Notes under the pieces: model-generated | Told to the model about the DNA's origin: nothing | Databases searched by the model: none | Seen by the model: the letters and a program-made list of their open reading frames with translations, nothing else | Assembly (NCBI RefSeq): GCF_000020025.1 | Contig: NC_010631.1 | Location: 90,001-122,000 of the forward strand | Direction of reading: 5' to 3' | Source: Nostoc punctiforme PCC 73102 | GTDB taxonomy: Bacteria; Cyanobacteriota; Cyanobacteriia; Cyanobacteriales; Nostocaceae | DNA length: 32,000 nucleotides | Part shown: positions 1,809 through 28,584 of the stretch, one piece after another | Numbering within the stretch: position 1 is the stretch's first letter | Layout: every line of letters begins with the position of its first letter | Translations under genes and position numbers: made by a program

Positions 1809-1843
1809 GTATATATCTCCCACAGGAGGAAGGTTATGTAAAT
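1809..1843 (-). promoter_or_regulatory. Copy A of the bipartite upstream motif (ATTTACATAACCTTCCTCCTGTGGGAGATATATAC on the minus strand)
   Basis: It lies about 33 nt upstream of the minus-strand TPR-CHAT start. It shares TT(G/A)CATA, a 14-15 nt spacer and (G)AGAGATATATA with the copies at 3254, 3468, 20958, 27825 and 28551. Confidence 0.45.
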
Positions 1844-1981
1844 ATATGGTAACTGCCTAGCTAGTAGGATTTGAGAAAAGCAAAAGAGAGACATTACCAA
1901 GTAACGCATCAGTAATAACTAGAATAAGCTAATCGGCACATAAGTTGCATAATAAGAAGATGAAGCCGTTCAAAAGCAACT

Positions 1982-3133
1982 ATGCCGCCACCAGCCAAGA
2001 ATTTTTTAACTACGGAACAAGTTAGTAAGTTACAGCAAGCTCTAAAAGAGAGCGAGCTACCCCACGTCAGGGAAAGAATTCTAATTATTTTGCTCCAAAA
2101 CGATGGGAAACCGCAACAGGAAACTGCTAAATTTTTAGGCTGTTCGCGCAGAACAGTGGCATATTGGTGTATGCACGGTGATCCAGATGATCTAGAAACT
2201 CTACATAATAAAAGAGAGTACGAACATTATCGAAAAGCTACTCCTGAATATATTGAACTGTTATTAAAAACTGTTGACCAAGAGCCATCAGATTTAGGCT
2301 ACGACTTTGGCAGATGGACGGCAGAAAGATTAGCCACATATTTAACCCAGAAAACAGGGATTGATTTAAGTAGTTCTCAGTTAAGGAGGATATTAAAGCG
2401 AAAAAAGTATAGTTATATCTGGGCTAAATATGACCTAGAAGATAAACAAAATCCAATTGAAAGAGCGAAGTTTAAAGAGAAACTTACTCAATATTTATCA
2501 ATAGCACGAGAACAGCCAGAGCGTTTTCAGGTATGGTTTTGGGACGTTAGCGTAGCGGGCGCGCGTACCCGCGCGACGAGCGGTTTTAGTTTACGTGTGA
2601 TTCGATGCAAGGGATGGGGTAAAAAAGGAAAACGCAAGAATGTTCCAGGAGAACGGCGTTGTGGTCGAGTAAATGTCATGGGGGCAATCAGAGAGCTAGA
2701 CCGGAAACGCGTATGCTTTTTTGTAAAAAAGGGAAACGCAGATATTTTTTATGAGCAATTACAACAATTAAATGGACTAATAAAACAAGAATGGGTTAGT
2801 ATTGGAAACCGTTTTGAAGATTTTGCGAAATCTGGCCCGAAGATTATTTTAATTTTAGATAATGCTAGTTTTCATAAGCGCAAAGATGTTCTAACTAAAA
2901 TATCTCAAGAGTTTCCCAACTTTGTTTTAGAGTTTTTACCTGCTTACAGCCCAGATTACAACATCATCGAATTAGTTTGGCATTCATGTAAAGAATATAT
3001 TGCTCACCGTCTATTTAAATTAGTGGATGAATTAAAATCATTACTAGATAAGTTGTTAAATCAAGGTGAGTTAGTAATTAAGTGGCATCGGAAAATAAGA
3101 AATAAAGGCAATATCCACTATGTTGCAGCTTAA
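1982..3133 (+). CDS. IS630/Tc1-mariner-type DDE transposase (383 aa)
   Basis: The N-terminus is HTH-like (ETAKFLGCSRRTVAYWC). The DDE region reads VWFWD..SGFSLR, ILILDNASFHK and LPAYSPDYNIIELVW. The ORF sits inside the TIR-bounded element. Confidence 0.85.
   Translation: MPPPAKNFLTTEQVSKLQQALKESELPHVRERILIILLQNDGKPQQETAKFLGCSRRTVAYWCMHGDPDDLETLHNKREYEHYRKATPEYIELLLKTVDQEPSDLGYDFGRWTAERLATYLTQKTGIDLSSSQLRRILKRKKYSYIWAKYDLEDKQNPIERAKFKEKLTQYLSIAREQPERFQVWFWDVSVAGARTRATSGFSLRVIRCKGWGKKGKRKNVPGERRCGRVNVMGAIRELDRKRVCFFVKKGNADIFYEQLQQLNGLIKQEWVSIGNRFEDFAKSGPKIILILDNASFHKRKDVLTKISQEFPNFVLEFLPAYSPDYNIIELVWHSCKEYIAHRLFKLVDELKSLLDKLLNQGELVIKWHRKIRNKGNIHYVAA
2546..2578 (+). repeat. 33-nt GC-rich palindromic in-frame insertion in the transposase (encodes VSVAGARTRAT)
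   Basis: GTTAGCGTAGCGGGCGCGCGTACCCGCGCGACG is very GC-rich compared with the surrounding AT-rich ORF. It contains the GCGCG-TACC-CGCGC hairpin. It splits the FWD/SGFSL motif that is contiguous in IS630-type transposases. Confidence 0.5.
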
Positions 3134-3253
3134 ATGCTGATTAGCTTACCAGTTAAATGCTGAATTAATAGAAACAGCACTATTGATTGGCGAAAGCTTG
3201 TAAGTCATGTTTGCATAAATTGGCGACGTGAAAAAACATACAGCACCAAGCAG

Positions 3254-3290
3254 TTTTGCATAAGTTCCTCAGTGCTGGAGATACAGGTAA
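3254..3290 (+). promoter_or_regulatory. Copy F (divergent) of the bipartite upstream motif: TTTTGCATAAGTTCCTCAGTGCTGGAGATACAGGTAA
   Basis: It has the same TTGCATA half-site and the same 15-nt spacing to GGAGATA. The second half is degenerate. Confidence 0.3.
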
Positions 3291-3467
3291 TAAACCGTAG
3301 AGACGAAGGTTGCTGGCGCAAAACTTTATATCTCGGAGCAATGGGGGGGTATGTAAAAACTAAATTTGACATTGTAGAACAGTGTGATGAATTGTGGCAA
3401 GCAGACGACGCAGGGGGGAATGAAAGGAAGTTGCTAAATCATCCCGCTTTCTCTACAACGCCCTAAA

Positions 3468-3503
3468 TTTTTACATAAGCTCTCCGCGATGAGAGATATA
3501 TGT
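3468..3503 (+). promoter_or_regulatory. Copy B of the bipartite upstream motif: TTTTTACATAAGCTCTCCGCGATGAGAGATATATGT
   Basis: It lies about 89 nt upstream of the small ORF at 3593 that heads the lanthipeptide cluster. It matches the copies upstream of the CHAT/TPR genes. Confidence 0.45.
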
Positions 3504-3592
3504 TAGCGTCGGCAACCACGCAAAGCCGAAGTAAAGAAAGATAACTGCACAATTTCCTACTGAGACTGACTTGATACTAAAGGGGAGTTATA

Positions 3593-3709
3593 ATGTCTAA
3601 TTTTTCTTATCACTCGCATGGTGAACATTGGGAATTTGGCAAGGTTGGATTAGTCATATTAGGTGTGGTAGTTATCCGAAGTCTTTTTATTGTGATTCGT
3701 CAACAATAA
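3593..3709 (+). CDS. Hypothetical 38-aa membrane peptide (MSNFSYHSHGEHWEFGKVGLVILGVVVIRSLFIVIRQQ)
   Basis: The ATG is preceded by an AAGGGGAG Shine-Dalgarno-like sequence with about 7 nt spacing. The peptide has a His-rich N-terminus and one hydrophobic helix. It ends 19 nt before the regulator gene. It is too short to appear in the ORF track. Confidence 0.35.
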   Translation: MSNFSYHSHGEHWEFGKVGLVILGVVVIRSLFIVIRQQ

Positions 3710-3728
3710 TTTTTATTAATCTAAAAAA

Positions 3729-4574
3729 ATGCCCAATATTATCATAATTGAACGAGATATCAACTACCTGAAAATATTCATTAAATGTATGAAAGAGAGT
3801 GGTTTTGAAGTTGTTTGTATGAACAATACAAAACTGGTTTCTCAGGTAGCACAAAAGCAGTTACCAGACTTGATAATTTGTAGTCTTGAGATAGCAAAAC
3901 AAAATAATTGTAATTTCTGGAATAATCTGTGCCAAAACTTTGTTACAGCAACAATTCCCTTAATTTTTCTAATTAATGAAGCATCTGAGATTTATCAATG
4001 TCCTGAATTTGCAGCAGATGGCTATATCACTAAATTTTGTACAACAGAGGAACTGAATAAAGCCATCAAAGCCCAACTAGCGAAGCAAGCCGCCCGCAAA
4101 CATGGGTATGCTATTCAGTCTCAACAAGTTTTAAATTCACCTTCAATTGGCAACGATCAACCCAATGTTCAGTCGATTTTACCATCTATTCCTCGCCTCA
4201 ATCTGGTATTTGAGTTTATAGCAGCTAATTACGACAAACCTATCAGTTTATGTGACGTAGCTGAGGCATTAGGTTACTCTGCAACTTATTTAACTACTGT
4301 TGTTACGCAAACAACAGGAAAATCTTTGCAGAAATGGATAATTGAGTGCCGGATAACGGCTGCACAAATATTATTACTGCAAACTGACCAATCAGTTAAT
4401 CAAATTGCTCTTAAGGTGGGATATGAAAATCTTGCTCATTTCTATAGACAGTTTCGTGATTATCATGGAACTTCTCCTCAAGTTTGGAGAGAAGTAGAAA
4501 AATCTCACAATAGTCACCAGCTAAACAAAGATAAAGCATCCCTAAATTCAAATAATTTTGGTGACTTTCAGTGA
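3729..4574 (+). CDS. AraC/XylS-family transcriptional regulator with an N-terminal degenerate (pseudo-)receiver domain
   Basis: The C-terminus carries an AraC double HTH (ISLCDVAEALGYSATYLTTVV ... VNQIALKVGYENLAHFYRQFRDYHGTSPQVWR). The N-terminal ~120 aa follow the CheY-like beta/alpha pattern, but the acidic pocket reads IIIIERD and the phospho-acceptor position reads DLIICSLE, with no Asp. Confidence 0.75.
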   Translation: MPNIIIIERDINYLKIFIKCMKESGFEVVCMNNTKLVSQVAQKQLPDLIICSLEIAKQNNCNFWNNLCQNFVTATIPLIFLINEASEIYQCPEFAADGYITKFCTTEELNKAIKAQLAKQAARKHGYAIQSQQVLNSPSIGNDQPNVQSILPSIPRLNLVFEFIAANYDKPISLCDVAEALGYSATYLTTVVTQTTGKSLQKWIIECRITAAQILLLQTDQSVNQIALKVGYENLAHFYRQFRDYHGTSPQVWREVEKSHNSHQLNKDKASLNSNNFGDFQ

Positions 4575-4654
4575 AAACTGCAAGTACTAAGCAACTTAAT
4601 CACTTAGATTCGTTGAGATAATCAAATATCTTCGGTGTAATTTTACTCAAAAAA

Positions 4655-7600
4655 ATGGAAGAACGTGAAATGATTAATAATGAATTCAAAACAACATCAA
4701 CTCAAGTTAAGGTAGTGCAGATTGCCAGTAAAGCTACCTTCTTATTTGAACGATTAATTAATAATAATCTGTCGCTTAATGTCACTCATTTCAACGAAAA
4801 AGAAGCTGATAAACGTATAGTGGATTGGTGTAAAGTTATTGCTAAAGGCGACCTGGAAGTATTTCATAAGCGTTTAGAATGGAGTAATTGGAATATTGAA
4901 ACAATACGTGATTTATTTGGGACAGAGCCAATTTTTGATAGCCAAAACTTGCCAAATTGGGTAAAAACTTTATCAGACATTATCCACATCCTTTCAGAGT
5001 CTAATATCCAAAAGATATCTCCAAACGCCAGTGAACCGGAAAATCCCTATCCTTTTGAAGAAATATTATTAGCTCTAGTTGCAGTGGCACGTCAGAAATT
5101 ACTAAATTGCTTAGGTTTTGACTCATTATCTCCAGACACTTTACCATTAAAGATACTTAGTGAAGCTGCTTACTTAAATCTAGAGAAAGCTTTACTGCAA
5201 AAACTATTTAATTTAAGTGCAAAAGCTTTAGAATTTGAATTTTCTATTTCTCGCAGTTTTGGCAAAAACTTTCTTAGCCAATTCATCAAGAACACGAAAA
5301 ATGTGCATAGTACAGAGCTATATAAGACTTTTATTCAAAAGTCATTGGCTGACGGATTGTTAGGATTTTTTCAAAAGTATCCTTTGTTAGCTAGGTTCAT
5401 TGTTACAACAATTGATTTTTGGGTAGAAGCTACAAAGGAATTTTTAGAGAGACTTGATGCTGATTTAGGAGAAATCCAGCAAAAAATTCATCCATTAGCA
5501 AATACAGAAAATTATCAAGCTTTTGATACAGTTATAGAAATTAAATCGGCTATATCTGACTCCCATAATCAAAATCGTTCTGTAATTGCCCTCACATTTG
5601 CATCAGGCAGAAAGCTAGTGTATAAACCCAAAAATTTAGGGTTAGAAGTTGCCTTTTGTCAGTTTTTAGAATGGTGTAATCAAGAATTAACATTAGGACA
5701 AAATCATCCCTCTTTAAACCTCAAAGTTTTACAAGTTATAAACCGAGGAGATTATGGTTGGGTGGAGTATATAGAGCAGAAACCCTGTGAAGATGAAGCA
5801 GCAGCACAGCGTTTTTATATCCGAGCAGGTATGTTGCTATGCCTGTTATATGTATTAGGAGGAACTGACTGTCACAATGAGAATTTAATAGCTTGTGGCG
5901 AAAACTTAGTGTTGGTTGATATGGAAACTGTCATGCAGCACGAAGCAAAATTAATGGGGGTTTCCTTAGACCAAAGTGCAACATCACTAGCCACTAATCA
6001 ACTCTTTGATTCAGTCCTTCGCACTGGACTACTACCAATGTGGGAATTCGCTGCTAATGATTCCATAGCCTGCGATTTTAGCGGTCTTGGTAGTGTTGAG
6101 GTACAGCCAGTACCAATACCGATGCCAGTATGGAAATTTATCAACACTGATGATATGCACCAAGGGTATGAAAAACTTGACAGACCTTTAGAGGCGAATA
6201 TAGCGCTTTTAAACGGGATGCCACTATCACCGAAAAACTACATAAATGAGTTAGTTATTGGCTTTGAACAAATGTATTGCTTCTTGATGAGACAAAAAGA
6301 AGTACTGCTAGCTGCTAACAGTCCACTCAATGTATTTCATGCTCAAAAAGTGCGATTTATCTTTCGTCCCACCAGAGTTTATGGAATGCTTCTTGGTCAG
6401 GTAATGACTCCAGAATTCCTTCAGCACGGACTTGATTGGAGTATACAAGTAGATGTCTTGAGTCGGTCATTTCTGACTAATGGGGATAAACCCTTGGCTT
6501 GGCAGATTCTTCTTGAAGAACTCAAGGCTATAAGTCAGTTAGATATTCCCTACTTCAGTGGTCTGGTTGATGGGGATACTTTACCTCTAGGAGAAGAGAA
6601 AGCTATAGTTGAGTATTTTAAAACATCCTGCTTGTCTCAAGTTAGATCAAGATTACAAAAGTTGAATGAAAATGACTTGGCACAACAACTGAGCATTATT
6701 CAATTGGCTTTTTATGCTAAAGAAGCACGAATTCTGCAAACAAATCCAAGTAGTTCTATATCACAGGAGGCAGAGTATGATTCTGCGCTCGTGTTGACAT
6801 CAGCAGAATTGTTAGAGCAAGCACAGGAAATTGCCAGCGAAATTCAAAACCGAGCTATCTGTGGTGCTGATGATAGCCTGACTTGGATTAGTTTGACTTA
6901 CGTCCTCAGTGCTGAACGATTCCAACTGATGCCCCTGGGCTATAGTTTCTACGATGGTAATTGCGGCATCGCTGTATTTTTAGCAGCTTTAGCTCGTGTG
7001 ACAGGTAAAACGCTATATCGTGATTTAGCTTTGAGAGCTATACAGCCTCTGCAAAATTATTTGCAAACATCCGATACTAAAACAGACTTGGATACAGCGT
7101 TAAATCTGGGGATTGGAGGTGCTACAGGACTTGGTTCCATTATCTATAGTTTTGTCAAAATCAGCCAATTTTTAGAAGTGCCTCAGTTGTGTGCAGATGT
7201 CCAGCGATTTGCTAACTTAATTACACCTACAGCAATTTCTGCCGATCGCAAGTTTGACATTATTGGGGGAGCAGCAGGAGCAATTTTGGGACTTTTGGCA
7301 CTTGCTCAAGAACAGCCGATGGTTTTAAAACAAGCGATCGCCTGCGGTCAGCACCTGTTAAAGTACTGCAACGAAGTGTTTGGGAAAACTTCAAATCTCA
7401 AGGGTTTAATTGGTTTTTCTCACGGTGCAGCCGGTATTGCTTACGCATTGCTGCGTCTCTATGCGGTCACTCAAGATACTGATTACTTGGATGCGGCTCG
7501 GATGGCGATCGCCTACGAAAATGCCTTATTCTATCCCTCAGTTGGTAACTGGCGAGAAATCACTCCTGTTTATGACCCTGCTTCACTGCCCGTTTTTTGG

Positions 7601-8005: not shown

Positions 8006-8316
8006 GGCTGTCACAAAAGTAACAAATCTGAGAAAGAAAGGCAGAAGTTCGAGGGCAGAAGGCAAAAGGTTAGGAGTAACAATTAAAACTTTAGTTCTGG
8101 GTCTAAAGCCAGTTTAGATAAATAATTATACCGAGACTGCTTGCAGCAAGGTATAAAACGTCCTTGTTACAATCCCACTCTTTTAAGGGTGGGTTGCCTT
8201 CTGCCTTTTGAAAACAATTTACATACTGAAGCTACTGATAATACAAATTTGTCGGTAGCTTACTCAATTTTGAATTTTTAAACTGATAGCAATTTTAGAA
8301 ATAAACCTTGTAAAGA

Positions 8317-8409: not shown

Positions 8410-8535
8410 GTTATAGATATTTTTAGCGAATAACATAATAAGTGTCAGTGCAAGAGACTAAATAGAAATACTAAATATAAAAAGTCTTTTGTACTGCAAT
8501 GCTAATCAAAACTTCATCAATAGGAAAAAATAGTC

Positions 8536-17461: not shown

Positions 17462-17961
17462 GACTTAGAGGTACATATTGCCGAAAATTAAAGGATAAGC
17501 TTGCTGAACCTAGAGCCTGACTGGTTTTGTGGCCAAATGCCCGTTTTGCGAGAGTGCGATCGCCTTTGGCGGGCGGTTATGCCATCGCAAAGCACAAAAA
17601 TGATCGCATTGCCTACATTTAGCGTAGAACTCGCGGCAAGCTTATTCTTTAATGAAATTCGACCAATAATTAAGAATTAATCGAAATAATAATGCTTTCA
17701 GCCTTTACTGCGGCAAGCTTTTACTTTAAGTCACAACCTCTTTGCTCATGATAGTTGTGGCGGTGTGCTATCGAGATCACTGCCTCTATTTTTATGTATC
17801 TCCAGGTACTCAGAAGGGTATGCAAAAATTCTGGCTTGCTCAATCTCGTCTCATTTGCCAAGGCACGCAAAGTTACTTAAGATCCTAAGTTTTTGTCCTC
17901 AATGAGTTTTGCCATACAAGCTAAAACTGCATAAGGTAAGTGAGTCTAGAATTAAGAACCA

Positions 17962-19422
17962 ATGTCAGGCGATACTGCTGTTGATGGTTTAGTTCAAATA
18001 CTTATGGGTGTGGCATCACGATATTGGGAACTAGTGAAAATTGATGGGGCGGGACGGCGACAGGTTCGGGAAATTAGTGCAGCTAAGGCATTTTTTGTAG
18101 ATGTGTTCCCAGCGATCACCTCCAGTGGAGGGAACGGCATCGTAGATAATACAGATCGTCATCATGTCCCAGATGCAGAAATTCAACTCCAACTGCTGCA
18201 ACTATCGCGGGATGCACCTGCTGATAGATGTTTGTTAGCACAACGTTGTCTATTGTGTTTTATATCTTGGCAAATTGAGCAAGTTTGCTTACAATTGGCA
18301 GCCAATTTTGGGAGGGTTCACGGTTTCAGTTGTGCTGATTTGCTGCCTTACGTCCTAGATGATGATGGCAAGCTACAACCGAATAGCACTTATCAATCTC
18401 TTTCTCAAAAGATTTTGCAGAGTTTTAACCCACAACAAAGCAGTCTCACAACCTGGACAACTACCAGAGTCAAACACGATGCTGCACTCAATCAATTTTT
18501 GCTGGAGTGTGGAGTTTATATGGTGAGTGACTGGGCAATTCTTAATGATACTCGACCTCAACAGCTAGAGCGCATTTTCCGAGAATTTTACGCCTTAACA
18601 CCTCCAGAAATTCAACAAGCGCAACAGCTTTTAGGAAGCTACCATGCTATTTATCGGACAGCGCGTCTGCAACAGCGATCGCTCTCCATTGGGGGGAAAT
18701 GTACTACACCGACAACTCAACAACTACAACAAATCGCCACTCTCCTCCAAAGTCAAACTAGTCAAACTCTCAAGAGTGAGACTGTGATGACACAACTGCA
18801 AAAACTCGCAACTCAACTAAGAGAATACCGGATTCATGTCCGGGGTGGGTCTTTACCGACAAAATCTCTAGATACTATTACTGGTGATGAGTATACTGAC
18901 ACTACCAAAGCGTTAGATAATGAAGATGAACAAGCAGAGTTTTTGCAATTATATCGCCCCCAATTTCTGGCTTGTTTAGAACAAGCATTGGCTATAGTGA
19001 CTCAATCACGGGTAAATAGATTACAACGGAAAAAGGGTGAAAAAGCCAAAAAGTTTTTGCAAGCACTCAAGTTATTTCACTGTCAAAATTTACGCATGAC
19101 AGAAATTGCTGACAGTATGGGATTACGCGCCCAAGATGCAGTAACTCGTTTGTTAAAACTAAAAGAATTTCGTGCTGATGTCAGACAACAGCTTTTATTA
19201 TTGTTATGCGAGCGCGTTTTGGATTTGGCAAAAAACTACTCTCATCCAGACAGGCTGATAACTTTAGAACAGCAAATTAAACTTGCTCTTGACGAACAAA
19301 TTACTCAGGTTATAAAAGAAGCAGGAAATCAATCTCAAACAGCAAAAATAAACACAATAGAAAATGGTCTGTTTAGTGAAAGACTCTGCCGCTATCTCGA
19401 TTCGCTTAATGAGGAAATATGA
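17962..19422 (+). CDS. Hypothetical 486-aa protein with a C-terminal sigma-70 region-4-like HTH (putative divergent sigma factor or DNA-binding protein)
   Basis: The segment FLQALKLFHCQNLRMTEIADSMGLRAQDAVTRLLKLKEFRADVRQQL resembles a region 4.2 HTH. The rest of the protein could not be assigned by eye. The stop codon overlaps the next start (ATGA). Confidence 0.4.
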   Translation: MSGDTAVDGLVQILMGVASRYWELVKIDGAGRRQVREISAAKAFFVDVFPAITSSGGNGIVDNTDRHHVPDAEIQLQLLQLSRDAPADRCLLAQRCLLCFISWQIEQVCLQLAANFGRVHGFSCADLLPYVLDDDGKLQPNSTYQSLSQKILQSFNPQQSSLTTWTTTRVKHDAALNQFLLECGVYMVSDWAILNDTRPQQLERIFREFYALTPPEIQQAQQLLGSYHAIYRTARLQQRSLSIGGKCTTPTTQQLQQIATLLQSQTSQTLKSETVMTQLQKLATQLREYRIHVRGGSLPTKSLDTITGDEYTDTTKALDNEDEQAEFLQLYRPQFLACLEQALAIVTQSRVNRLQRKKGEKAKKFLQALKLFHCQNLRMTEIADSMGLRAQDAVTRLLKLKEFRADVRQQLLLLLCERVLDLAKNYSHPDRLITLEQQIKLALDEQITQVIKEAGNQSQTAKINTIENGLFSERLCRYLDSLNEEI

Positions 19423-20765
19423 CTAATTTATCCAAAAGTACTCCGCAGATGCGGCTAGATTTTGAATCTTTACCAACAGCCACCATTACTCTCTCTGCCG
19501 ATCAAATTACTCAAGCAGTAGAACTCAGTAGTAAAATCAAAAATTCGTCTCAGCAGTGGCAGACTTATATTCATGCTTTGGCGTTATGCGCTTTTGAAGA
19601 ATGGTTAGCATTACGGGTAAATTCTCTGACAATTAACCGGGAAAGATGTACAACTTTGCAGCCAGCACTTGCGAAAGCGATCGTGGCTGTGGCGAATTTA
19701 CAGGTAGGTAAATTTAAAATTTGTTTAATTACCACTGGTAGCCTGACTGATGAGCAAATTTATTTACCGCAAGCAGTTGTAGATTTACCAGAATATATTC
19801 CTCATTTTTATGTGTGGGTGGAAGTTTTAGAAGAAGAAGATGCAGCACTTATTTCGGGATTTTTATCCTATCAGCAGTTAAGAGAACACCAGACAACAGT
19901 TAATTTACAATCATCAGCAGATTGGAATTATCAAATACCAGTGAGTTGGTTTGAGAAGAATCCAGACCGCTTATTGTTATACTTGCGTTGTCTAGAACCA
20001 GAGACAATTGCTTTACCAGCTAAAAGCGAAAATACCCAGCTTTTATCGACAATCCAAAATGAATTACTAGCATTATTACCCCAATTGCGATCACCTGGAA
20101 CAGAACTGTGGCAAGTATTAACTTGGGAACAGGGAAAGGTGGTATTGACTCATCCAGAGTTGCTGAATTGGATTGATAATTCGCAACAGCAAACACACAC
20201 GTCTTCAACTAGTGACAGCTTAAAGGATTTACTGAAATTGTTGACAGAGCCAGCGCTGAATGTGGGACGTTGGTTGTGGGATGAATTAGATGAATTAGCA
20301 GAGGAATTTTCTTGGCGATTATTACCGAGTTTGACACCAGCAGCAGCGATGCGAAGTCCTATAGAAGAGTTTCCAGCCATTATTCACCAACTTCAGCACC
20401 GAGGTTTGGAAATTCCGGCTGTGGCGCGGGGTGCGTATCAAGATTTTCTTTTAACAGCAATTCCTCTGCGGTTGTATGCTGTGACTTGGCATTTGTTAGC
20501 GGAATCAGAACCGAATTTATGGACATTATTGTTAGTTCTTGGTACAGCTTCTCACACAGCTTTACCTGTTTATTTAAAACTGCGGGTGAGTGACCAAACT
20601 GGGGTTTTAGTAGAACAGGAGATAAATCCACAACAGCAAGATTCTTATTTATTTACGCGTGTGGTGGGGAATTGGGATGAGAAGTTTTTGGTGAGTGTAA
20701 GTTTAACAGATGGTGTTGAGGTGAACTTACCTCCATTTACATTTTCTCCCAGGCGGTTGGTTTAG
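19419..20765 (+). CDS. DUF1822-like cyanobacterial protein (448 aa), translationally coupled to the sigma-like gene
   Basis: The pattern WQTYIHALALCAFEEWL...LQVGKFKICLITTGS...VDLPEYIPHFYVWVEVLEEE...ISGFLSYQQL is as I recall for DUF1822-family proteins. There is a 4-nt ATGA overlap with the upstream gene. Confidence 0.5.
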   Translation: MTNLSKSTPQMRLDFESLPTATITLSADQITQAVELSSKIKNSSQQWQTYIHALALCAFEEWLALRVNSLTINRERCTTLQPALAKAIVAVANLQVGKFKICLITTGSLTDEQIYLPQAVVDLPEYIPHFYVWVEVLEEEDAALISGFLSYQQLREHQTTVNLQSSADWNYQIPVSWFEKNPDRLLLYLRCLEPETIALPAKSENTQLLSTIQNELLALLPQLRSPGTELWQVLTWEQGKVVLTHPELLNWIDNSQQQTHTSSTSDSLKDLLKLLTEPALNVGRWLWDELDELAEEFSWRLLPSLTPAAAMRSPIEEFPAIIHQLQHRGLEIPAVARGAYQDFLLTAIPLRLYAVTWHLLAESEPNLWTLLLVLGTASHTALPVYLKLRVSDQTGVLVEQEINPQQQDSYLFTRVVGNWDEKFLVSVSLTDGVEVNLPPFTFSPRRLV

Positions 20766-20957: not shown

Positions 20958-20995
20958 TGTTTGCATAACCTCCCCAAGCGTGAGAGATATAGATA
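20958..20995 (+). promoter_or_regulatory. Copy C of the bipartite upstream motif: TGTTTGCATAACCTCCCCAAGCGTGAGAGATATAGATA
   Basis: It lies about 44 nt upstream of the GTG start of the TPR-CHAT gene at 21040. Confidence 0.45.
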
Positions 20996-21039
20996 ATTAG
21001 CTAGTAAATATTCTCACCTCTGTTGGAGGACTGCTTCTC

Positions 21040-23172
21040 GTGCATTACCGTCTTAAATCCCTCTCTCTTACTACTTTGATGCTTTCCCTGTCTTTACCTG
21101 TAGGAGTTGCGGAATCAAAGCCAAGGGGAAATATGCAAACTACCCTAACTGCACAGGCGCAAACAACACAAGAACGCAAGGATGAAGCATTGCGGCTGAA
21201 CCGATTAGGTGTTCAACAATTCAATAAAGGCCAGTTTCAAGAAGCTTTAAAAACTTTTGAGCAAGCTTTAGCGATTGTCAAACAAATCGGTAACACAGCA
21301 GATGAAGGCACTACTCTCAACAATATTGGGGAAATTTACCGCAATTTGGGAGAGTATGCCAAAGCTTTAGACTTCTATCAGCAAGCTTTAGCGATTTACA
21401 AACAAATTGGTGACACAGCAGGTGAAGGCACTACTCTCAACAATATTGGGTTAGTTTACGACAGCCAGGGAGAGTATGCCAAAGCTTTAGACTTCTATCA
21501 GCGAGTTTTAGCAATTGTCAAACAAACTGGTAACACAGCCGTTGAAGGCAAAATTCTCAACAATATTGGGTCAGTTTATGTCAATCAGGGAGAGTATGCC
21601 AAAGCTTTAGACTTCTATCAGCAATCTTTAGCGATTTACAAACAAATTGGTAACACAGCAACTGAAGGCACTACTCTCAACAATATTGGGGAAGTTTACC
21701 GTAATCAGGGAGAGTATGCCAAGGCTTTAGGCTTCTATCAGCAAGCTTTAGCGATTTACAAACAAATTGGTGGCACAGTAGGTAAAGGGACTGCTCTCAA
21801 CAATATTGGGTTCACTTACAACAGTTTGGCTAGGTATGCAGATGCAGAAAAAACCTTATTTGCAGCTATTGAGGTTTGGGAATCTCTGCGAACACGGGAA
21901 TTACCTGATGACCAAAAAATATCAATTTTTGAGAAGCAAGCTTCCACTTACCATTTGCTACAACGAGCTCTGATTACCCAAAATAAAACTAACACAGCAT
22001 TAGAAATATCTGAACGAAGTCGAGCTAGAGCATTTATTGAGTTATTAGCCTCCAAAATATCTGGAAATATCGACAATCAACAAGCTGTCAAACCACCTAA
22101 TATTGAGCAAGTTAAACAAATTGCCAAAGCACAAAATACCACACTTGTTGAATATTCAGCTAATGAATCAAAACTTTATATTTGGGTCGTCAAACCAACT
22201 GGTAAAATAGCTTTTAAACAAGTAGACCTCAATTCATTAAATACACCACTTGCACAACTAGTAAACAAAAGCCGTCTATCTATTGGTGCTGGGGGTCGGG
22301 GTATTAAGGTAGAACCTAAAAATGAATATACTAAAAAACAGACTTTACAGAAATTACATGAGGTATTGATTGAACCCATCGCATCTCTTCTCCCTACTAA
22401 TCCAGATGAACACGTTATCTTCATCCCCCATGAATCGCTGTTTTTAGTTCCTTTCGTAGCACTGCAAGATAAAGATGGCAAATACCTGATCGAGAAACAC
22501 ACTATCTTAACAGCACCAGCAATTCAAGTTTTAGATTTGACACATCAGCAACGCCAAAAGGTGACGGGTAAAGATGTGTTAGTTATGGGCAATCCTATCA
22601 TGCCAAAAGTAGGCATTCCACCTGTGCAACTTAACCCACTGTTGGGTGCCCAAAAGGAAGCTGTGACAGTTGCAAGTTTATTCAAAACTAAAGCTATCAC
22701 TGGTAAAGATGCAACAAAAGCAGCTTTCAAACAAAAATTATCATCTGCGAAGATTATTCATTTAGCAACGCATGGATTGTTAGATGACGCTGATAAGAGT
22801 ATACCAAGTGCGATCGCTCTTGCACCCACCAGCAACGATGACGGTTTACTCACCCCTGCGGAAATTGTCGATTTAAAAATCAACGCTGAATTAGTGGTGT
22901 TAAGCGCTTGCGACACAGGTAGAGGGACAATTACTGGTGATGGCGTAATTGGATTATCTCGTTCTTTGATTACGGCTGGCGCGTCTAGTGTGATTGTCTC
23001 ATTGTGGGCGGTTCCTGATTCACCCACATCAGAATTAATGACAGAGTTCTATCAGCAATGGCAGAAAAATCCTGATAAGGCGGCGGCGTTACGCAATGCA
23101 ATGCTGATTACTATGAAGAAGCATCCTCAGCCTCGTGATTGGGCGGCTTTTACATTGATTGGCGAGTCTTAA
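21040..23172 (+). CDS. Secreted TPR-repeat / CHAT-domain (caspase-like Cys protease) protein, 710 aa
   Basis: The signal peptide is MHYRLKSLSLTTLMLSLSLPVGVAES. Five 40-aa TPR units follow. The CHAT region carries a His (IIHLATHGLLDD) and a Cys (VVLSACDTGRG) dyad, and the C-terminus reads WAAFTLIGES. Confidence 0.9.
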   Translation: MHYRLKSLSLTTLMLSLSLPVGVAESKPRGNMQTTLTAQAQTTQERKDEALRLNRLGVQQFNKGQFQEALKTFEQALAIVKQIGNTADEGTTLNNIGEIYRNLGEYAKALDFYQQALAIYKQIGDTAGEGTTLNNIGLVYDSQGEYAKALDFYQRVLAIVKQTGNTAVEGKILNNIGSVYVNQGEYAKALDFYQQSLAIYKQIGNTATEGTTLNNIGEVYRNQGEYAKALGFYQQALAIYKQIGGTVGKGTALNNIGFTYNSLARYADAEKTLFAAIEVWESLRTRELPDDQKISIFEKQASTYHLLQRALITQNKTNTALEISERSRARAFIELLASKISGNIDNQQAVKPPNIEQVKQIAKAQNTTLVEYSANESKLYIWVVKPTGKIAFKQVDLNSLNTPLAQLVNKSRLSIGAGGRGIKVEPKNEYTKKQTLQKLHEVLIEPIASLLPTNPDEHVIFIPHESLFLVPFVALQDKDGKYLIEKHTILTAPAIQVLDLTHQQRQKVTGKDVLVMGNPIMPKVGIPPVQLNPLLGAQKEAVTVASLFKTKAITGKDATKAAFKQKLSSAKIIHLATHGLLDDADKSIPSAIALAPTSNDDGLLTPAEIVDLKINAELVVLSACDTGRGTITGDGVIGLSRSLITAGASSVIVSLWAVPDSPTSELMTEFYQQWQKNPDKAAALRNAMLITMKKHPQPRDWAAFTLIGES
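21229..21828 (+). repeat. Five tandem 120-bp TPR coding units with very high nucleotide identity
   Basis: GGAGAGTATGCCAAAGCTTTAGACTTCTATCAGCAAGCTTTAGCGATTTACAAACAAATTGGT..ACACAGCA..TGAAGGCACTACTCTCAACAATATTGGG recurs nearly verbatim. Confidence 0.85.
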
Positions 23173-23247
23173 GGAAAAGTTTATGCAGAGACGCAAAGAG
23201 GGAACGGAAAGAGTTTAAGGTGTATTTTATAAGTGTTTATTGGCGGT

Positions 23248-24429
23248 CAAAAGTGTTGAATGTTAAGAAAAATCCGATAAAAACAGCCCAAAATATGTTA
23301 AATTTTGGGCGGAAGATTAAAGTATATCTATTTAATAGTGATTATAAATTCATTTCCCAAGATTGTCAAAGATATCTTGAGAGGACTGCCAAAAAACGAT
23401 TATCCAGTATTGAACAGTCGTCTGTTCTTTGAGTGCTGGTTATCTTATGCTATGGATAACAGCTTAACAAGTATGCGAGATTTATTTAACAGATTAAACA
23501 ACACAGGATTTCCGGTAGATATTTCTACTTTCTCTAAAGCAAACTTACATCGAAGTCAAAAACCTTTTCAAGAAATTTACCAAAAATTAAATGAATTAGT
23601 ACAGAAGAAAGTTCAAAAAAAGTTACATGATAAATATGCAATTTGTCCAATAGATTCAACAATTATTACTCTCACAAGTAAATTGTTATGGGTACTAGGA
23701 CACCATCAAGTAAAACTTTTCAGTTCTCTAAATTTAGCTACTGGAAGTCCATCAGATAACTTCATAAACTTTGGACATGACCATGACTATAAATTTGGTT
23801 GTAAAATGATGTCTAGTCTACCAAATAATGCTGTTGGTGTAATGGATAGAGGTTTTGCTGGATTAAAATTTATCCAAGAATTAGTCCAAGAAAACAAATA
23901 CTTTGTTTTGCGGGTAAAAAACAATTGGAAGTTAGAATTTGAGGAGCAAACTGGATTAATTAAAGTTGGTGCATCTAATGATGCTCAAGCCTATAGAGTG
24001 ATTAATTTTTGTGATTTAGAAACGAAAACTGAGTTTCGATTAGTAACCAATTTACCAACATTAGGAGAGGCTGCCGTTAGTGATTATGAAATCAGGGATA
24101 TTTATCGATTGCGTTGGGGAGTTGAATTGTTGTGGAAGTTTTTGAAAATGCACTTAAAACTTGACAAGTTAATTACTAAAAATGTTAATGGTATCACCAT
24201 ACAAATTTACGTTACTTTAATAGCTTATCTAATTTTACAGATATTATCTGTACCACAACAATGGGGACATACGCTATTAGATAAATTCCGCTATTTACAA
24301 TCTTGTATGTGTCAGAAAATAAGTTATGTTCATTGGTTTGAAGAGATGATGTCATGTTGACTATTTTAGGCTTTTTAGAGTTAGTGTAACTAGATATGTA
24401 AACTTTTGTATCAGCATTCAACATTTCTG
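23248..24429 (+). mobile_element. IS4-family insertion sequence (1182 bp) with 15-bp TIRs and a 9-bp target-site duplication
   Basis: The left end is CAAAAGTGTTGAATG (23248-23262). The reverse complement of the right end (24415-24429) is CAGAAATGTTGAATG, a 13/15 match. ATTGGCGGT is directly repeated at 23239-23247 and 24430-24438. Confidence 0.85.
23305..24360 (+). CDS. IS4-family DDE transposase
   Basis: The motifs are CPIDSTIITL, VMDRGFAGLKFIQEL and the YREK signature YRLRWGVELLWKFLK. The 23305 start is a TTG. The in-frame GTG at 23338, giving (M)IINSFPKIVKDIL, is a more likely start. Confidence 0.85.
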   Translation: MGGRLKYIYLIVIINSFPKIVKDILRGLPKNDYPVLNSRLFFECWLSYAMDNSLTSMRDLFNRLNNTGFPVDISTFSKANLHRSQKPFQEIYQKLNELVQKKVQKKLHDKYAICPIDSTIITLTSKLLWVLGHHQVKLFSSLNLATGSPSDNFINFGHDHDYKFGCKMMSSLPNNAVGVMDRGFAGLKFIQELVQENKYFVLRVKNNWKLEFEEQTGLIKVGASNDAQAYRVINFCDLETKTEFRLVTNLPTLGEAAVSDYEIRDIYRLRWGVELLWKFLKMHLKLDKLITKNVNGITIQIYVTLIAYLILQILSVPQQWGHTLLDKFRYLQSCMCQKISYVHWFEEMMSC

Positions 24430-24447
24430 ATTGGCGGTTAATTAATT

Positions 24448-26865
24448 ATGACTGCTTTTATTTTTAATTTAAAAGTTCAACAATTCGATCAACTTTGTGC
24501 ATTTGAACTATCTTGGGGTAAGGGTCAGCAACTTGGTGTAACACTTGCCTATCCTAATGATCTGGATTTCAAATACCAAGAATGGCAGCGAATTTATCTA
24601 CGTTTTTATAACACAAAATTGCGAAGTAGAGTAGAAGAAATTGGCAGTTTTACTGCACCGCCTGTTGATTGGCACTTGCAACTAGTCCAGGCAGAAGCAC
24701 AACTTTTATCGGAATTTCATCACTGGTTACGGAGTGCTGAATTACATGAAATTCGTGCAACAATTGCTCAAGCAACCAGAAAAGATGAGCATCCTAATGT
24801 TGATCTTTTTCTCACTTGCAATCCTTTAGATTTAGCACGATTACCTTGGGAAGCTTGGGAAATTGGTACGGAATTTAGTTCATCATCTAGTAAAATTAGG
24901 ATTGTTCGTACACCAATAAATAGGCGAGAAACTGTTTCTTCTCCTCATGATCGCCGTTCTGGTAAAACCAGAATTTTAGTGATTCTTGGTGATGAAACTG
25001 GTTTAGACTTTCAAGCAGAAAAGCAGGCTATGATTTTTTTAAAATCAGTGGCAAAAGTAGAATTTATTGGTTGGCAACCTCAAGAAAGTATCCCGGAATT
25101 AAAAACTAAGATTGTCCAGGCGATCGCCTCTGAATCAGGATGGGATATTTTATTATTTGCTGGTCATAGTAATGAAACTAATTTGACTGGGGGAGAAATA
25201 GCGATCGCTCCCAATACAGCTTTATCAATTAGTGAAATAGCACAGCCATTAATTATTGCTAAACAGAGAGGATTGCAGTTTGCTATTTTCAATTCTTGTA
25301 ATGGTTTAAGCATTGCTAATAAACTGATTGATTTAGGTTTAAGTCAAGTAGCCGTCATGCGCGAACCTATCCACAATCAAGTGGCTGGCGAATTTTTATT
25401 AGAATTTATCAAAGCTTTAGCCCAATATCAAGATGTCCATGAATCGATGATTACAGCTGCTCAACATCTGAAACTAGAAAACTCTCTTACTTATCCTAGT
25501 GCTTATTTAATTCCTTCTTTATTTTGCCATCCAGAAGCAACTTTGTTTCGCTTTCAACCCTCTGGAATCAAGCCATTTATCCAATATTGGCGACTTAGCC
25601 GCAAAGAAGCGATCGCCCTCTCCATTTTATTATTAATTAGTTTAATTTTACCTGTACAAACTTTCTTATTACAGTGGCGTGTATGGGTACAGGCTATCTA
25701 TCGTGACACAACAAATCAATCTATCACCTCAACAAGTCCGCCACCAGTATTATTAGTACAAATTGATGAGGATTCTATTATTAAAGCTAAAATATCTGAT
25801 CCTAAACCAATTGATTATAAGTATTTAGCAAGTTTAATTGACCGACTCTCAGCCGATAAAGCTAAAGTCATCGGTATTGATTATCTACTCTCTAGACATC
25901 AACCGCAAAGCGATCGCATCCTCGCTAAGTCTATTCAAGCTGCTGTTAGTTCTCCCAATCATACATTGTTTGTGTTTGCAGCCACCGGGAATCAGAATAA
26001 GAAATGGTTACAACCATTGCCGGAAATTGCTAACTTTAATTGGAGTTTATCAGGAGACATTAAGTTTTATCCTTGGTATATATCATTATTACCTCATGAT
26101 GATTTTCAAACTCAGCCTTGGTATTTTTCTAATTTATTAGTTTTGGGACAGCAATTACAACAAATTTCTGATGCACCACAGCCAAAATTAGATAGTCAAA
26201 CAGATTATTTTCAACAGATGGGAGATGTTTCTCCAAGGAATTTAAAATCTCATCGAATTATTTTACAATCACCGCGATCGCGTCTGCAATTAATAACAGC
26301 TTTGAGTTATCAACTATGGCAAATGTGGCTGCATCCAATCGCTGATTTTTCAATTCCACCCAATCAGATATACCATACTATCCCAGCTTGGAAAGTCCTA
26401 GAAAATCAAACTCCACCTCAAAACTTACAGCAGCAAGTTGTGATTATTATTCCTGGTGGATATGACGAAGCTGGCATTTCCCAAGATGGAGAAGATAATT
26501 TCGCAGATGCAAATTTACCACCAGCTATTAAATACTGGCAGCCTAACACTAATTTATTCACAGGTGGTGAGTATCATGCCTATATGATACATCATTTACT
26601 GAATCAGAGATTGGTTGTACCGATTCCTGATTTCTGGGTAACTGGCATAGCTCTATTATTAGGAAAAATACTGTATCTACAACAAAAAAATAGAAAATAT
26701 CGTTGGCAATGGTTGTTGCTGATGACAATATTCACAGGGATTTATGGAATAATCAGTTTGCAGTTATACATTTCAACAACGGCAATACTTTTGCCTTGTT
26801 TCTTACCATCAATCGGCTTGTGGGTTTACTTTGTCCCTAATCTTTTATCAAGTAAAAAATCATGA
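24448..26865 (+). CDS. CHAT-domain protease fused to a transmembrane CHASE2 sensor domain (805 aa)
   Basis: The N-terminal CHAT region has RILVILGDETGLD, His LLFAGHSNETN and Cys FAIFNSCNGLSIA. A TM helix follows (AIALSILLLISLILPVQTFLL). The CHASE2-like periplasmic region reads VLLVQIDEDSI...YLASLIDRLSADKAKVIGIDYLL. Three C-terminal TM helices close the protein. Confidence 0.8.
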   Translation: MTAFIFNLKVQQFDQLCAFELSWGKGQQLGVTLAYPNDLDFKYQEWQRIYLRFYNTKLRSRVEEIGSFTAPPVDWHLQLVQAEAQLLSEFHHWLRSAELHEIRATIAQATRKDEHPNVDLFLTCNPLDLARLPWEAWEIGTEFSSSSSKIRIVRTPINRRETVSSPHDRRSGKTRILVILGDETGLDFQAEKQAMIFLKSVAKVEFIGWQPQESIPELKTKIVQAIASESGWDILLFAGHSNETNLTGGEIAIAPNTALSISEIAQPLIIAKQRGLQFAIFNSCNGLSIANKLIDLGLSQVAVMREPIHNQVAGEFLLEFIKALAQYQDVHESMITAAQHLKLENSLTYPSAYLIPSLFCHPEATLFRFQPSGIKPFIQYWRLSRKEAIALSILLLISLILPVQTFLLQWRVWVQAIYRDTTNQSITSTSPPPVLLVQIDEDSIIKAKISDPKPIDYKYLASLIDRLSADKAKVIGIDYLLSRHQPQSDRILAKSIQAAVSSPNHTLFVFAATGNQNKKWLQPLPEIANFNWSLSGDIKFYPWYISLLPHDDFQTQPWYFSNLLVLGQQLQQISDAPQPKLDSQTDYFQQMGDVSPRNLKSHRIILQSPRSRLQLITALSYQLWQMWLHPIADFSIPPNQIYHTIPAWKVLENQTPPQNLQQQVVIIIPGGYDEAGISQDGEDNFADANLPPAIKYWQPNTNLFTGGEYHAYMIHHLLNQRLVVPIPDFWVTGIALLLGKILYLQQKNRKYRWQWLLLMTIFTGIYGIISLQLYISTTAILLPCFLPSIGLWVYFVPNLLSSKKS

Positions 26866-27605
26866 ATAAATTGCTGTTTTATACGTTATCATTATCAGTA
26901 ATAGCTTTGAGTACTGCACCTGTTTTATCAAATCAACCAATACCTACTCAACCAAAGCAACCACAGTCGTTTATATCTTGGATTTCCCAAGCTATCTTTA
27001 AAAAAGAACCGCCGATACAGCCACGCAAAGGTGGTTCTCGCCCGACTGTACGTGATACTAATGATATCTGCATGATTTCTCCAGATGAACCAGAGACTAC
27101 TAGAATTGTTTGGAGCGATCGCCCTTTATTTATTTGGGAAGGTAAGGTAAAAAAAATAGTAGTGCTTAATAAAAATACTGGTAAAAAGTGGACTCAACCA
27201 GTAACTGAGACTCCAAATATTTATACTTACACAGGAGATGAACCACTAGAACCAGGCCAAACCTACGAATGGCGAGTGTTTTTTGAAGATAGTCTGTCTC
27301 AAAAAGAATTGTCTAGTGGTGTTAATTTTCAAGTGATGGAAGCACAACAACGCGATCGCATTACCGCAGACTTACAGAATTTAGAAAAACAACTCAAAGC
27401 CGAAAATAAAGATAACGAAGCGATCGCTCTTGCCAAAGCCAAATATTTTGCCGAAAATCAATTATGGTCAGATGTCTTGCAGCAATTGTATTCTATACAA
27501 ACAACGTCTACTGATTTAGACGCATTTCGTAAAGACATTTCTCGCAAGTTATGTGATCCACCTACGGAAGTTAGCCATAATTCCCCCAAGCGTGAGTCTC
27601 GATAA
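26862..27605 (+). CDS. DUF928-like periplasmic protein (signal peptide), translationally coupled to the CHAT-CHASE2 gene
   Basis: The signal peptide is MNKLLFYTLSLSVIALSTAPVLS. The segment PRKGGSRPTVRD..C, followed by SDRPLFIWEGKVKKIVVL and EPGQTYEWRVF, resembles the DUF928 pattern. There is an ATGA start/stop overlap at 26862-26865. Confidence 0.55.
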   Translation: MNKLLFYTLSLSVIALSTAPVLSNQPIPTQPKQPQSFISWISQAIFKKEPPIQPRKGGSRPTVRDTNDICMISPDEPETTRIVWSDRPLFIWEGKVKKIVVLNKNTGKKWTQPVTETPNIYTYTGDEPLEPGQTYEWRVFFEDSLSQKELSSGVNFQVMEAQQRDRITADLQNLEKQLKAENKDNEAIALAKAKYFAENQLWSDVLQQLYSIQTTSTDLDAFRKDISRKLCDPPTEVSHNSPKRESR

Positions 27606-27694
27606 TTCTCGTCGTCTCCTAACGATAATTCCTGGGAACGGTACGAGCGTTTGAGTATTGGTAACGACAACTTTTACATTCCTAACGACATTTG

Positions 27695-27754
27695 TAGCGT
27701 CATCACAACTGATAAGCCGATTCTAACAATAGCTTATCAGTTGTGATGACGCTA
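27695..27754 (+). terminator. Perfect 23-bp stem / 14-nt loop hairpin followed by a T-rich tract; likely terminator of the CHAT-CHASE2/DUF928 operon
   Basis: The left arm is TAGCGTCATCACAACTGATAAGC (27695-27717). The right arm is GCTTATCAGTTGTGATGACGCTA (27732-27754). The tract ATTTTATT follows. Confidence 0.65.
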
Positions 27755-27824
27755 ATTTTATTCCATAGATAAACTAGCATTTCCTTTACCTTTATCGAAA
27801 AATTTTTCATCTCTACTAAATTTT

Positions 27825-27862
27825 TTTGCATATCCTCCCAACACCTCAGAGATATATATATG
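27825..27862 (+). promoter_or_regulatory. Copy D of the bipartite upstream motif: TTTGCATATCCTCCCAACACCTCAGAGATATATATATG
   Basis: It lies about 76 nt upstream of the ATG at 27939 of the small TPR gene. Confidence 0.45.
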
Positions 27863-27938
27863 CGTGAACCAACAAGTCTACTTCTGCACAAGACTAGTTA
27901 GAAACTTAGCAAAACTTAGTATCTTAGGAGACATAGCA

Positions 27939-28454
27939 ATGAAGGGTTTGAAATTAGCAGTAGCGATGATTGCATTAGTAACATTGACTCTCACTCCCAA
28001 AGCTGAAGCCAAAAGCTTGTTCCACAATCAACAAACATCAACAGTTACTGCATAACTTCCCAACTCGCAAACTGAAAACAAGAGTGACACTGAAGCTTAC
28101 CTCCAACAAGGAATTGAGCTTTTAGACTCAAAAGACTATCAAGGAGCCATAGATGAATTTAACAAAATCCTGGAGATTGAACCCAAAAATATTTATGCTT
28201 ACGTTGGCAGAGGTGCTGCCAAGATGTACTTAGAACAGTATCAAGCAGCAAAGACAGACTTTGATACAGCCTTAGAAATTACTCCTGATATTTCTTTAGC
28301 CTACTATTTTCGGGGTTTTACCAATTATGCCTTAAAAGACAAACCAGCAGCGATCGCTGATTTACGCAAAGCATCCACACTGTTTAAACAAGAAAACAAA
28401 CTGGATTTAGCTCAAAAAGCGGACAGCGCAGCTAAAGAGATAGAAGCTAGCTAA
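27939..28454 (+). pseudogene. Small signal-peptide TPR protein interrupted by one in-frame TAA (28053-28055)
   Basis: An AGGAG sequence lies 8 nt upstream of the ATG at 27939. The signal peptide is MKGLKLAVAMIALVTLTLTPKAEA. The same frame stays open after the TAA through 28454 and encodes TPR units (YLQQGIELLDSKDYQGAIDEFNKILEIEPKNIYAYVGRGAAKMYLEQYQAAKTDFDTALEITPD...). The ORF-track pieces 27864-28055 and 28224-28454 are in the same frame. Confidence 0.55.
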
Positions 28455-28550
28455 AGCATTGCATAATTTTTATGACTGATGCAACAACCGGGTTTGCAAG
28501 ATATAAGTTTGTGAACCCAGTTTCTTTTTTACTCAAACACAAGCAAAATT

Positions 28551-28584
28551 ATTGCATATCCTCTGAAAACTGAGAGATATATAC
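28551..28584 (+). promoter_or_regulatory. Copy E of the bipartite upstream motif: ATTGCATATCCTCTGAAAACTGAGAGATATATAC
   Basis: It lies about 30 nt upstream of the ATG at 28615. Confidence 0.45.

Follow-up and report, generated by a model that had tools for sequence, protein, structure and literature searches.

Extracytoplasmic function (ECF) sigma/anti-sigma modules such as sigmaE-RseA and SigW-RsiW have autoregulated promoters, and the Sigma28 promoters of FliA and SigD have the form TAAA-N15-GCCGATAA. Protease-released sigma factors act in defence in the CalpL-CalpT-CalpS and SAVED-CHAT type III CRISPR cascades. Multicellular cyanobacteria are rich in CHAT/C14 caspase-like proteins that carry TPR or WD40 arrays, and a role in conflict or programmed cell death has been proposed for these proteins on domain grounds only. 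Here we describe a two-box DNA motif with the core T(G/A)CATA-N15/16-GA(G/A)(A/T)TA, found in a 32,000-nucleotide (nt) stretch of a plasmid of Nostoc punctiforme PCC 73102 (NC_010631.1, positions 90,001 to 122,000; hereafter the window). The motif, which is shared among filamentous cyanobacteria, is very probably a dedicated promoter-type element of a regulon, and comparison of the sequences points to a sigma-like protein encoded in the window as its likely reader.

The gene system around the motif has been described before. Kaur, Iyer, Burroughs and Aravind (2021, eLife; PMC8195603) reported EACC2-caspase neighbourhoods made up of the same genes: a caspase/CHAT protein whose C-terminus is CHASE2, a sigma-like protein, which they named a sigma factor of the ECF type, and a TPR-like DUF1822 protein. 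They proposed that this sigma factor regulates 'a multiplicity of genes'. In the sections of their paper drawn on here, the account is one of protein domains and gene neighbourhoods, and a cis-element is not mentioned. Relative to those sections, the promoter motif, the putative autoregulatory box and the target set (TPR-CHAT, small TPR, S8 peptidase, caspase and WD40 genes) are new, the gene neighbourhood having been known since 2021. A literature search found no published description of the cis-element, the autoregulatory box or the target set.

In kind, the arrangement corresponds to an alternative-sigma regulon; it differs in detail, with a factor missed by sigma models, a DUF1822 partner, TGCATA/GARATA boxes and a cargo of protease and TPR genes. 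Like ECF modules, it combines a bipartite promoter of fixed spacing, a promoter of its own type before the sigma gene, a translationally coupled partner and a small, dedicated and partly clustered regulon. Unlike them, the candidate factor is a protein of 450-490 amino acids (aa) that is not recognised by models of sigma-70 regions 2 and 4 or by TIGR02937, the boxes are TGCATA and GARATA instead of the usual ECF 'AAC' -35 and 'CGT' -10, and the partner is a cytoplasmic 450-aa DUF1822 protein with no known anti-sigma domain. The likeness to FliA and SigD promoters rests on promoter features: an A/T-rich -35, a 15-nt spacer, a long GATA-containing -10 and a group-3-like architecture; sigma32, the best structural match of the factor, is a group-3 sigma. 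Unlike FliA promoters, those described here have TGCATA rather than TAAA as -35 and no GCC in the -10, and the regulon is unrelated to motility. As in the CalpL-CalpT-CalpS and SAVED-CHAT cascades, a protease (CHAT or Lon-type), a sigma factor and a putative inhibitory partner are encoded together, which by analogy would suggest signal-triggered proteolysis that frees the sigma factor; unlike those cascades, the locus has no CRISPR or cyclic-oligoadenylate component, the sensor would be CHASE2, and cleavage of DUF1822 is conjecture.

Nine copies of the motif (A to H, and S; Table 1) are present in the window, all of them intergenic, where intergenic DNA makes up 13.9% of the sequence. The pattern TT[GA]CATA.{15,16}GAGATA has 8 matches, where 1000 dinucleotide shuffles average 0.006, and the relaxed pattern T[GA]CATA.{15,16}GA[GA][ACT]TA has 9 against 0.14 in Markov simulations. 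GAGATAYA is invariant across the eight strong copies. An earlier note on this DNA had listed six copies (A, F, B, C, D and E) and a degenerate 'relic' (27570-27610), and their letters and coordinates all match. Its count was too low: with both strands and the relaxed pattern searched, G and H, both on the minus strand, were found as full bipartite matches, and S, on the plus strand and C-prefixed, was found with the relaxed pattern. The relic is without both core boxes. Two isolated half-sites that had been placed near 3210 (read at 3211) and at 28459 are indeed present, and neither has a downstream box; another TTGCATA half-site, at 1945, belongs to an IS630 element, whose left terminal inverted repeat contains it.

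The geometry of the motif differs from the first description. The spacer, put at 14-15 nt in the earlier note, measures 15-16 nt between TTRCATA and GAGATA. From TTGCAT to GAGATA the distance is 16-17 nt, which is canonical -35/-10 geometry, and the earlier objection to a -35/17 bp/-10 promoter on grounds of spacing is not supported; only the -10 sequence is non-canonical. Nor do all copies point at a downstream gene, as had been supposed, since F, G and H have none. Copies B and F had both been placed before the small-ORF/AraC/lanM operon; this is right for B, on the plus strand, whereas F has no credible gene downstream.

Plasmid2 of Nostoc sp. HK-01, whose factor is 90% identical to that of the window, allowed the motif to be viewed over a whole replicon (304.6 of 311.7 kb scanned with annotation). 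It holds 11 motif matches against 1.25 expected, and 11 of 11 are co-oriented with a gene and lie 50-140 nt upstream of it. The genes behind these boxes encode three caspases, five TPR proteins, one WD40 protein, one S8/S53 peptidase and one hypothetical protein; the TPR/caspase/WD40/S8 class accounts for 10 of the 11 boxed genes and for 5 of 238 other genes (Fisher p=1.5e-13). Copies are confined to two clusters, at 53-58 kb and 216-262 kb, with none on the remaining replicon; two of them are 175 kb away from the sigma-like gene, and the factor would therefore act in trans. The result speaks against a genome-wide dispersed repeat lacking positional bias, which the earlier note had named as the contrary outcome. 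The boxes off the core cluster (L011 / L017, record 248155 and 254457) precede a 2054-aa WD40 protein and an S8/S53 peptidase.

Scanning 185,579 species genomes yielded 362 sigma-like loci, the best 80 of which (1.25 Mb) were analysed. The pattern TGCATA.{15,16}GA[GA][ACT]TA has 133 matches in these, against 3.0 expected, spread over 67 of the 80 loci, and 118 of the 133 (89%) lie upstream of a co-oriented open reading frame (ORF) at a median distance of 57 nt. The distinct downstream ORFs number 117: 50 are the sigma-like gene, which is thus preceded by a box in 50 of the 80 loci, and 67 are others, with TPR in 37, CHAT in 20 and Peptidase_S8 in 12, several of the remaining ones encoding a small TPR protein of ~175 aa (odds ratio 25, p=4.5e-47 for enrichment of the downstream classes). 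DUF1822 ORFs (75, against 79 sigma-like ORFs) lie directly behind the sigma-like gene in essentially every locus. Targets and the sigma-gene box are described by two separate position weight matrices, with the sub-consensus aawwT-TGCATA-(A/T/C)CCTCC...cT(G/C)A-GA(A/G)ATA-TAtA for targets and AAAA(C)-TGCATA-AGGTCA...A-GA(R)TTA-AGAAT for the sigma gene; the 68 target boxes are divided between N15 (35) and N16 (33). In many Nostocales loci, an S8 peptidase gene is divergent from the sigma-like gene and has its box ~60 bp away.

Metagenome contigs were searched with the exact pattern by motif alone, and most matches were due to chance. Among the 120 matches listed, 69 (58%) fall within ORFs and 24 (20%) lie upstream of and co-oriented with a gene, figures that serve as a chance control for positional bias; sigma-like and DUF1822 genes stand beside a match on at least two of the contigs, and TPR-CHAT genes on at least five.

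The sigma-like protein has more than 1000 homologues; all that carry an organism name are cyanobacterial, and every one is annotated 'hypothetical'. In relatives with a factor that is 92%, 70%, 64%, 57% and 54% identical, a range that takes in a non-heterocystous genus, the box is kept in all, and the order sigma-like, DUF1822, TPR-CHAT, CHAT-CHASE2, DUF928 is preserved in most. An alignment of 18 orthologous TPR-CHAT upstream regions was used as a footprint: ahead of the ribosome-binding site, invariant columns occur in the two boxes alone, as TTGCATAAC and T-AGA--TA-A; elsewhere, two columns at the ribosome-binding site and start codon are constant. The spacer and the DNA further upstream are variable, and a distance of 35-60 nt separates the boxes from the Shine-Dalgarno sequence and start codon.

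Variant boxes accompany divergent paralogues of the factor. Tolypothrix PCC 7712 has three plasmid-borne systems: those on plasmids 2 and 3, whose factors are ~50% identical, have TGCATA(C/T)CC...AGA(R/C)(A/C)TA, and that on plasmid 4 (L020; factor 35-37% identical) has TTGCATAGGCTC-N9-TAAAGATA before two CHAT-TPR genes, together with one divergent variant copy and, ahead of the system's factor gene, a weaker form. On the Acaryochloris plasmid pMB04 (L024; factor 25-30% identical), the box is TGAATAGG-N13-GGATAA, again including the one before the system's own factor gene. These variants would be the expected signature of co-evolution between factor and promoter, with few systems behind it. 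The pMB04 boxes additionally precede two peptidoglycan-binding proteins.

An AlphaFold2 model of the sigma-like protein (predicted local distance difference test [pLDDT] score of 78), compared with the PDB by Foldseek, matches sigma32 first (E=2.3e-3, probability 1.0) and sigmaA chains next, and sigma factors are the only matches of the full-length model with a probability >0.3. The C-terminus resembles a region-4 helix-turn-helix (HTH; ...LRMTEIADSMGLRAQDAVTRLLKLKEFRADVRQQL...), and a lenient Pfam scan matched Sigma70_r4 in 1 of 36 family members (E=3.4e-4). PADLOC, run on the proteins of the system, returned generic TPR models only. Between the end of box S and the called ATG of the sigma-like gene (17962) there are 7 nt. 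Homologues start at the equivalent of M15 (18004), and translation therefore probably begins at the ATG there, leaving ~49 nt from box S to the start codon. With the called start, the mRNA would be near-leaderless; otherwise the start is mis-called.

The position and orientation data agree with the earlier proposal of a promoter or operator for a dedicated factor: as a promoter-type element would, the motif has a direction and lies close to genes. As the factor, the sigma-like protein, one of two candidates then named, now fits best, given that the motif lies beside sigma-like/DUF1822 genes in many genera, that the protein's own gene so often has a box, that distant paralogues have their own variants, and that the motif-only search recovers sigma-like loci. 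Fixed spacing of two boxes, direction and gene proximity, and a sigma gene behind a box of its own type are features of alternative-sigma promoters, and all are found here. The explanation that we favour for the whole, and consider probable with some reserve, is that the motif is the own-class, autoregulated cognate promoter of a divergent sigma-like factor; we also lean, slightly more guardedly, towards this protein working as a true sigma.

Under this explanation, the promoter would consist of a -35-like (T)TGCATA followed by a C-rich stretch, a spacing of 15-16 bp and a -10-like (T-S-A)GA(G/A)ATA(TA), and would be read by RNA polymerase carrying the sigma-like protein (17962/18004-19422), the gene for which would be co-transcribed with that for DUF1822. 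The sigma-like/DUF1822 operon has a weaker box variant, AAAAC-TGCATAAGG...AGA(R)TTAAGAAT, through which the active factor would increase production of itself. Besides this, it would fire the promoters of TPR-CHAT, CHAT-CHASE2/DUF928, small TPR, S8-peptidase and caspase genes; in the window, the predicted target boxes are A, C, D and E, and possibly B (38-aa ORF/response-regulator-AraC/LanM operon). DUF1822 would restrain the factor, and, following the line of thought of Kaur et al. (2021), one may speculate that proteolysis by the CHASE2-linked caspase releases the factor. A still wider picture is tentative, and we regard it as possible but somewhat doubtful: filamentous cyanobacteria may harbour an unrecognised branch of sigma-like factors missed by standard models, each with a DUF1822 partner and a private code (TGCATA-N15/16-GARATA and its paralogue variants) that wires a mobile, plasmid-enriched 'cell-death/immunity' regulon of caspase/CHAT, S8, TPR and WD40 genes, controlled by CHASE2-caspase proteolysis of DUF1822 and by autoregulation, and capturing cargo such as the lan cluster when this gains a box.

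A promoter as sharply defined as this one makes the regulon computable in any genome and provides a handle on the inducing signal, through reporters, overexpression of the sigma-like protein or mutation of the boxes. It also provides a concrete test of the idea of Kaur et al. that the coupled sigma executes the output of the system, and offers cyanobacterial engineering a candidate orthogonal promoter/factor pair. Should these proteins be confirmed as sigma factors, they would form a new, very divergent group of the sigma family.

Several results weigh against a sigma-like reader of the motif. The 80 loci were picked via the sigma-like gene, and hence co-occurrence with it is no independent test; the core boxes are near-constant among factors 47-95% identical, and covariation rests on few distant paralogues. 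No Pfam or NCBIfam match above threshold was obtained for the protein (TIGR02937, E=0.5). A family profile searched against PDB sequences, at full length or with the C-terminal HTH region alone, found no sigma factor and only a weak DeoR HTH (E=0.24), and hhalign of the family with the genuine sigma-70 of the HK-01 plasmid was negative. For the N-terminal half, an AlphaFold2 model of residues 66-300 (pLDDT 90) has sigmaA as its top Foldseek match at a non-significant E=1.4. The sigma identity of the protein at 17962-19422 is thus weak at the level of sequence and at best moderately supported overall.

The same failures of sequence and profile searches to recognise a sigma factor, with no significant sigma2 match for the N-terminal domain, would be expected of an activator-dependent promoter, in which TGCATA is bound by a transcription factor (the HTH 'sigma-like' protein or another) and a housekeeping or group-2 sigma reads GA(R)ATATA as an atypical -10; TTGCAT is also similar to TTGACA, and the downstream box is A/T-rich. 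We consider this unlikely. The upstream box is as invariant as the downstream one, their 15-16 bp spacing is fixed, the downstream box invariably opens with GA, and a TAnnnT hexamer at a workable distance is absent, a result on which an ordinary sigma70 -10 was also rejected. Moreover, the full-length structural matches are confined to sigma factors, and a box before the protein's own gene with a translationally coupled partner is the arrangement classically seen for alternative sigmas. The sites of AraC proteins are asymmetric and overlap the -35 region, and the motif could in this way be an operator of the response-regulator/AraC protein (3729-4574), the other candidate of the earlier note, tying CHAT/TPR genes to lanthipeptide production; box B does lie upstream of the AraC-headed lan operon. 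However, site and regulator gene are not co-distributed: homologues of the regulator occur in 3 of the 80 loci and in none on the HK-01 plasmid with its 11 copies, the Scytonematopsis cluster is boxless, and the lan cluster is unique, among all loci compared, to the window's replicon. This very improbable reading is largely refuted by distribution.

A dispersed repeat or miniature inverted-repeat transposable element-like relic with no regulatory role might be suspected in a region rich in insertion sequences (IS), where F, G and H are geneless and F and G form an inverted pair, yet it is hardly credible: conservation is limited to ~30 bp in two blocks, between which the spacer is free, and terminal repeats and target-site duplications are absent; the 89% of copies upstream and co-oriented in the 80 loci compares with the 20% (58% within ORFs) among the mostly chance metagenome matches listed; and orthologous positions are held across genera. 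We give even less weight to a cis-regulatory RNA element of the 5' leader. The motif does lie upstream of start codons, and the leader is conserved in close relatives, but every Rfam family stays below its gathering score in the window, RNAalifold finds no base pairs on the 18 orthologous regions, and the spacer sequence is free to vary without a compensatory pattern. Two known sites were also compared and rejected. The HLR1 / RpaB box consists of two direct repeats (G/T)TTACA(T/A)(T/A) 2 nt apart; the present sites each have one TT(G/A)CATA unit, with G in the majority at position 3, and GAGATA as second box. The NtcA site, GTA-N8-TAC, is absent from the boxes.

The features of the window are listed in Table 1. 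Its lan part has the order (by Pfam) 38-aa ORF, response-regulator/AraC, LanM, Nif11-type precursor, GNAT, HlyD and two ATP-binding cassette (ABC) transporters, followed by boxes H and S; after box S come sigma-like, DUF1822, box C, TPR-CHAT, IS4-like element, CHAT-CHASE2, DUF928, box D, small TPR, box E and TPR-CHAT. The AraC protein matches a plasmid protein of Nostoc punctiforme PCC 73102 with 100% identity. An ortholog of box A on the HK-01 plasmid stands before the orthologous TPR gene (L011 8072-), and orthologs of box D are found in loci L005, L011, L025, L026 and L032.

Table 1. Motif copies, genes and mobile elements of the window
Feature	Coordinates	Strand	Sequence	Remarks
Box A	1814..1840	-	TACATAACCTTCCTCCTGTGGGAGATA	38 nt upstream of ATG (1775) of partial TPR-CHAT gene 3-1775 (-)
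IS630-family element	1925..3148	+		Transposase 1982-3133; 30-nt imperfect (80%-complementary) terminal inverted repeats; between boxes A and F; outside regulon
Box F	3257..3283	+	TGCATAAGTTCCTCAGTGCTGGAGATA	No credible gene downstream
Box G	3329..3355	-	TACATACCCCCCCATTGCTCCGAGATA	Convergent with F, 45 bp apart; orphan
Box B	3472..3498	+	TACATAAGCTCTCCGCGATGAGAGATA	94 nt upstream of 38-aa ORF; 230 nt upstream of response-regulator-AraC gene heading LanM cluster
38-aa hydrophobic ORF	3593-3709		MSNFSYHSHGEHWEFGKVGLVILGVVVIRSLFIVIRQQ	Between box B and AraC gene; GGGGAG Shine-Dalgarno
Response-regulator/AraC gene	3729-4574			
Box H	17797..17824	-	TGCATACCCTTCTGAGTACCTGGAGATA	Divergent from sigma-like gene; aims at 3' end of lan ABC transporter gene; no gene of its own
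Box S	17928..17954	+	TGCATAAGGTAAGTGAGTCTAGAATTA	Directly upstream of sigma-like gene; putative autoregulatory promoter
Sigma-like gene	17962..19422	+		486 aa as called; candidate reader of boxes
DUF1822 gene	19419..20765	+		Start overlaps sigma-like stop by 4 nt; constant partner, candidate anti-sigma-like regulator
Box C	20962..20989	+	TGCATAACCTCCCCAAGCGTGAGAGATA	50 nt upstream of GTG start of TPR-CHAT
Operon served by box C	21040..27605	+		TPR-CHAT 21040-23172, CHAT/caspase-CHASE2 24448-26865, DUF928 26862-27605
IS4-like element	about 23248-24429			DDE_Tnp_1 transposase 23305-24360; interrupts box C operon
Box D	27827..27854	+	TGCATATCCTCCCAACACCTCAGAGATA	84 nt upstream of small secreted TPR gene (ATG 27939)
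Small TPR gene	27939-28454		MKGLKLAVAMIALVTLTLTPKAEA...	Hydrophobic signal-peptide-like N-terminus (sequence shown); premature stop
Box E	28553..28579	+	TGCATATCCTCTGAAAACTGAGAGATA	35 nt upstream of TPR-CHAT 28615-31707

When the IS630 element is excised in silico, A(-) and F(+) become a divergent pair ~190 bp apart, like the HK-01 pair 8072(-)/8153(+). Because its removal restores this pair, F, G and H look like orphan promoters, remnants of one or more rearrangements that would include the arrival of the lan cluster. F(+) and G(-) face each other with nothing between, and if F, G and H are active, their transcripts would be short or antisense. Box H is kept in loci L001, L005, L026 and L027, and on HK-01 it precedes a hypothetical gene.

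Homology to all relatives starts at 17779, and the lan cluster (~3.4-17.7 kb) is therefore unique to this replicon among all loci compared; 3134-3728 has no homologue in any other locus compared. An orthologous response-regulator-AraC/LanM/Nif11/GNAT/HlyD/ABC cluster in Scytonematopsis has no box. The general link between CHAT/TPR genes and lanthipeptides that had been drawn from the shared motif does not hold up on these two results: by comparison of the loci, the connection is local to the Nostoc punctiforme PCC 73102 plasmid and not conserved, and box B may now drive the 38-aa ORF/AraC/LanM operon. The 38-aa ORF is called as a gene in an independent assembly too (L226 475-591).

The TPR-CHAT/CHAT-CHASE2/DUF928 operon is unbroken in all relatives and is split by the IS4-like element in the window, and the genes beyond this element may be uncoupled from box C in strain PCC 73102. 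The small TPR gene is probably a pseudogene: its reading frame is interrupted by a TAA at ~28053-28055, at a codon for which the 92%-identical relative (L026) shows Gln. A further CHAT-type gene seems to begin near 31.8 kb (31708-32000), right behind TPR-CHAT 28615-31707 and with no box of its own; it is probably co-transcribed from box E.

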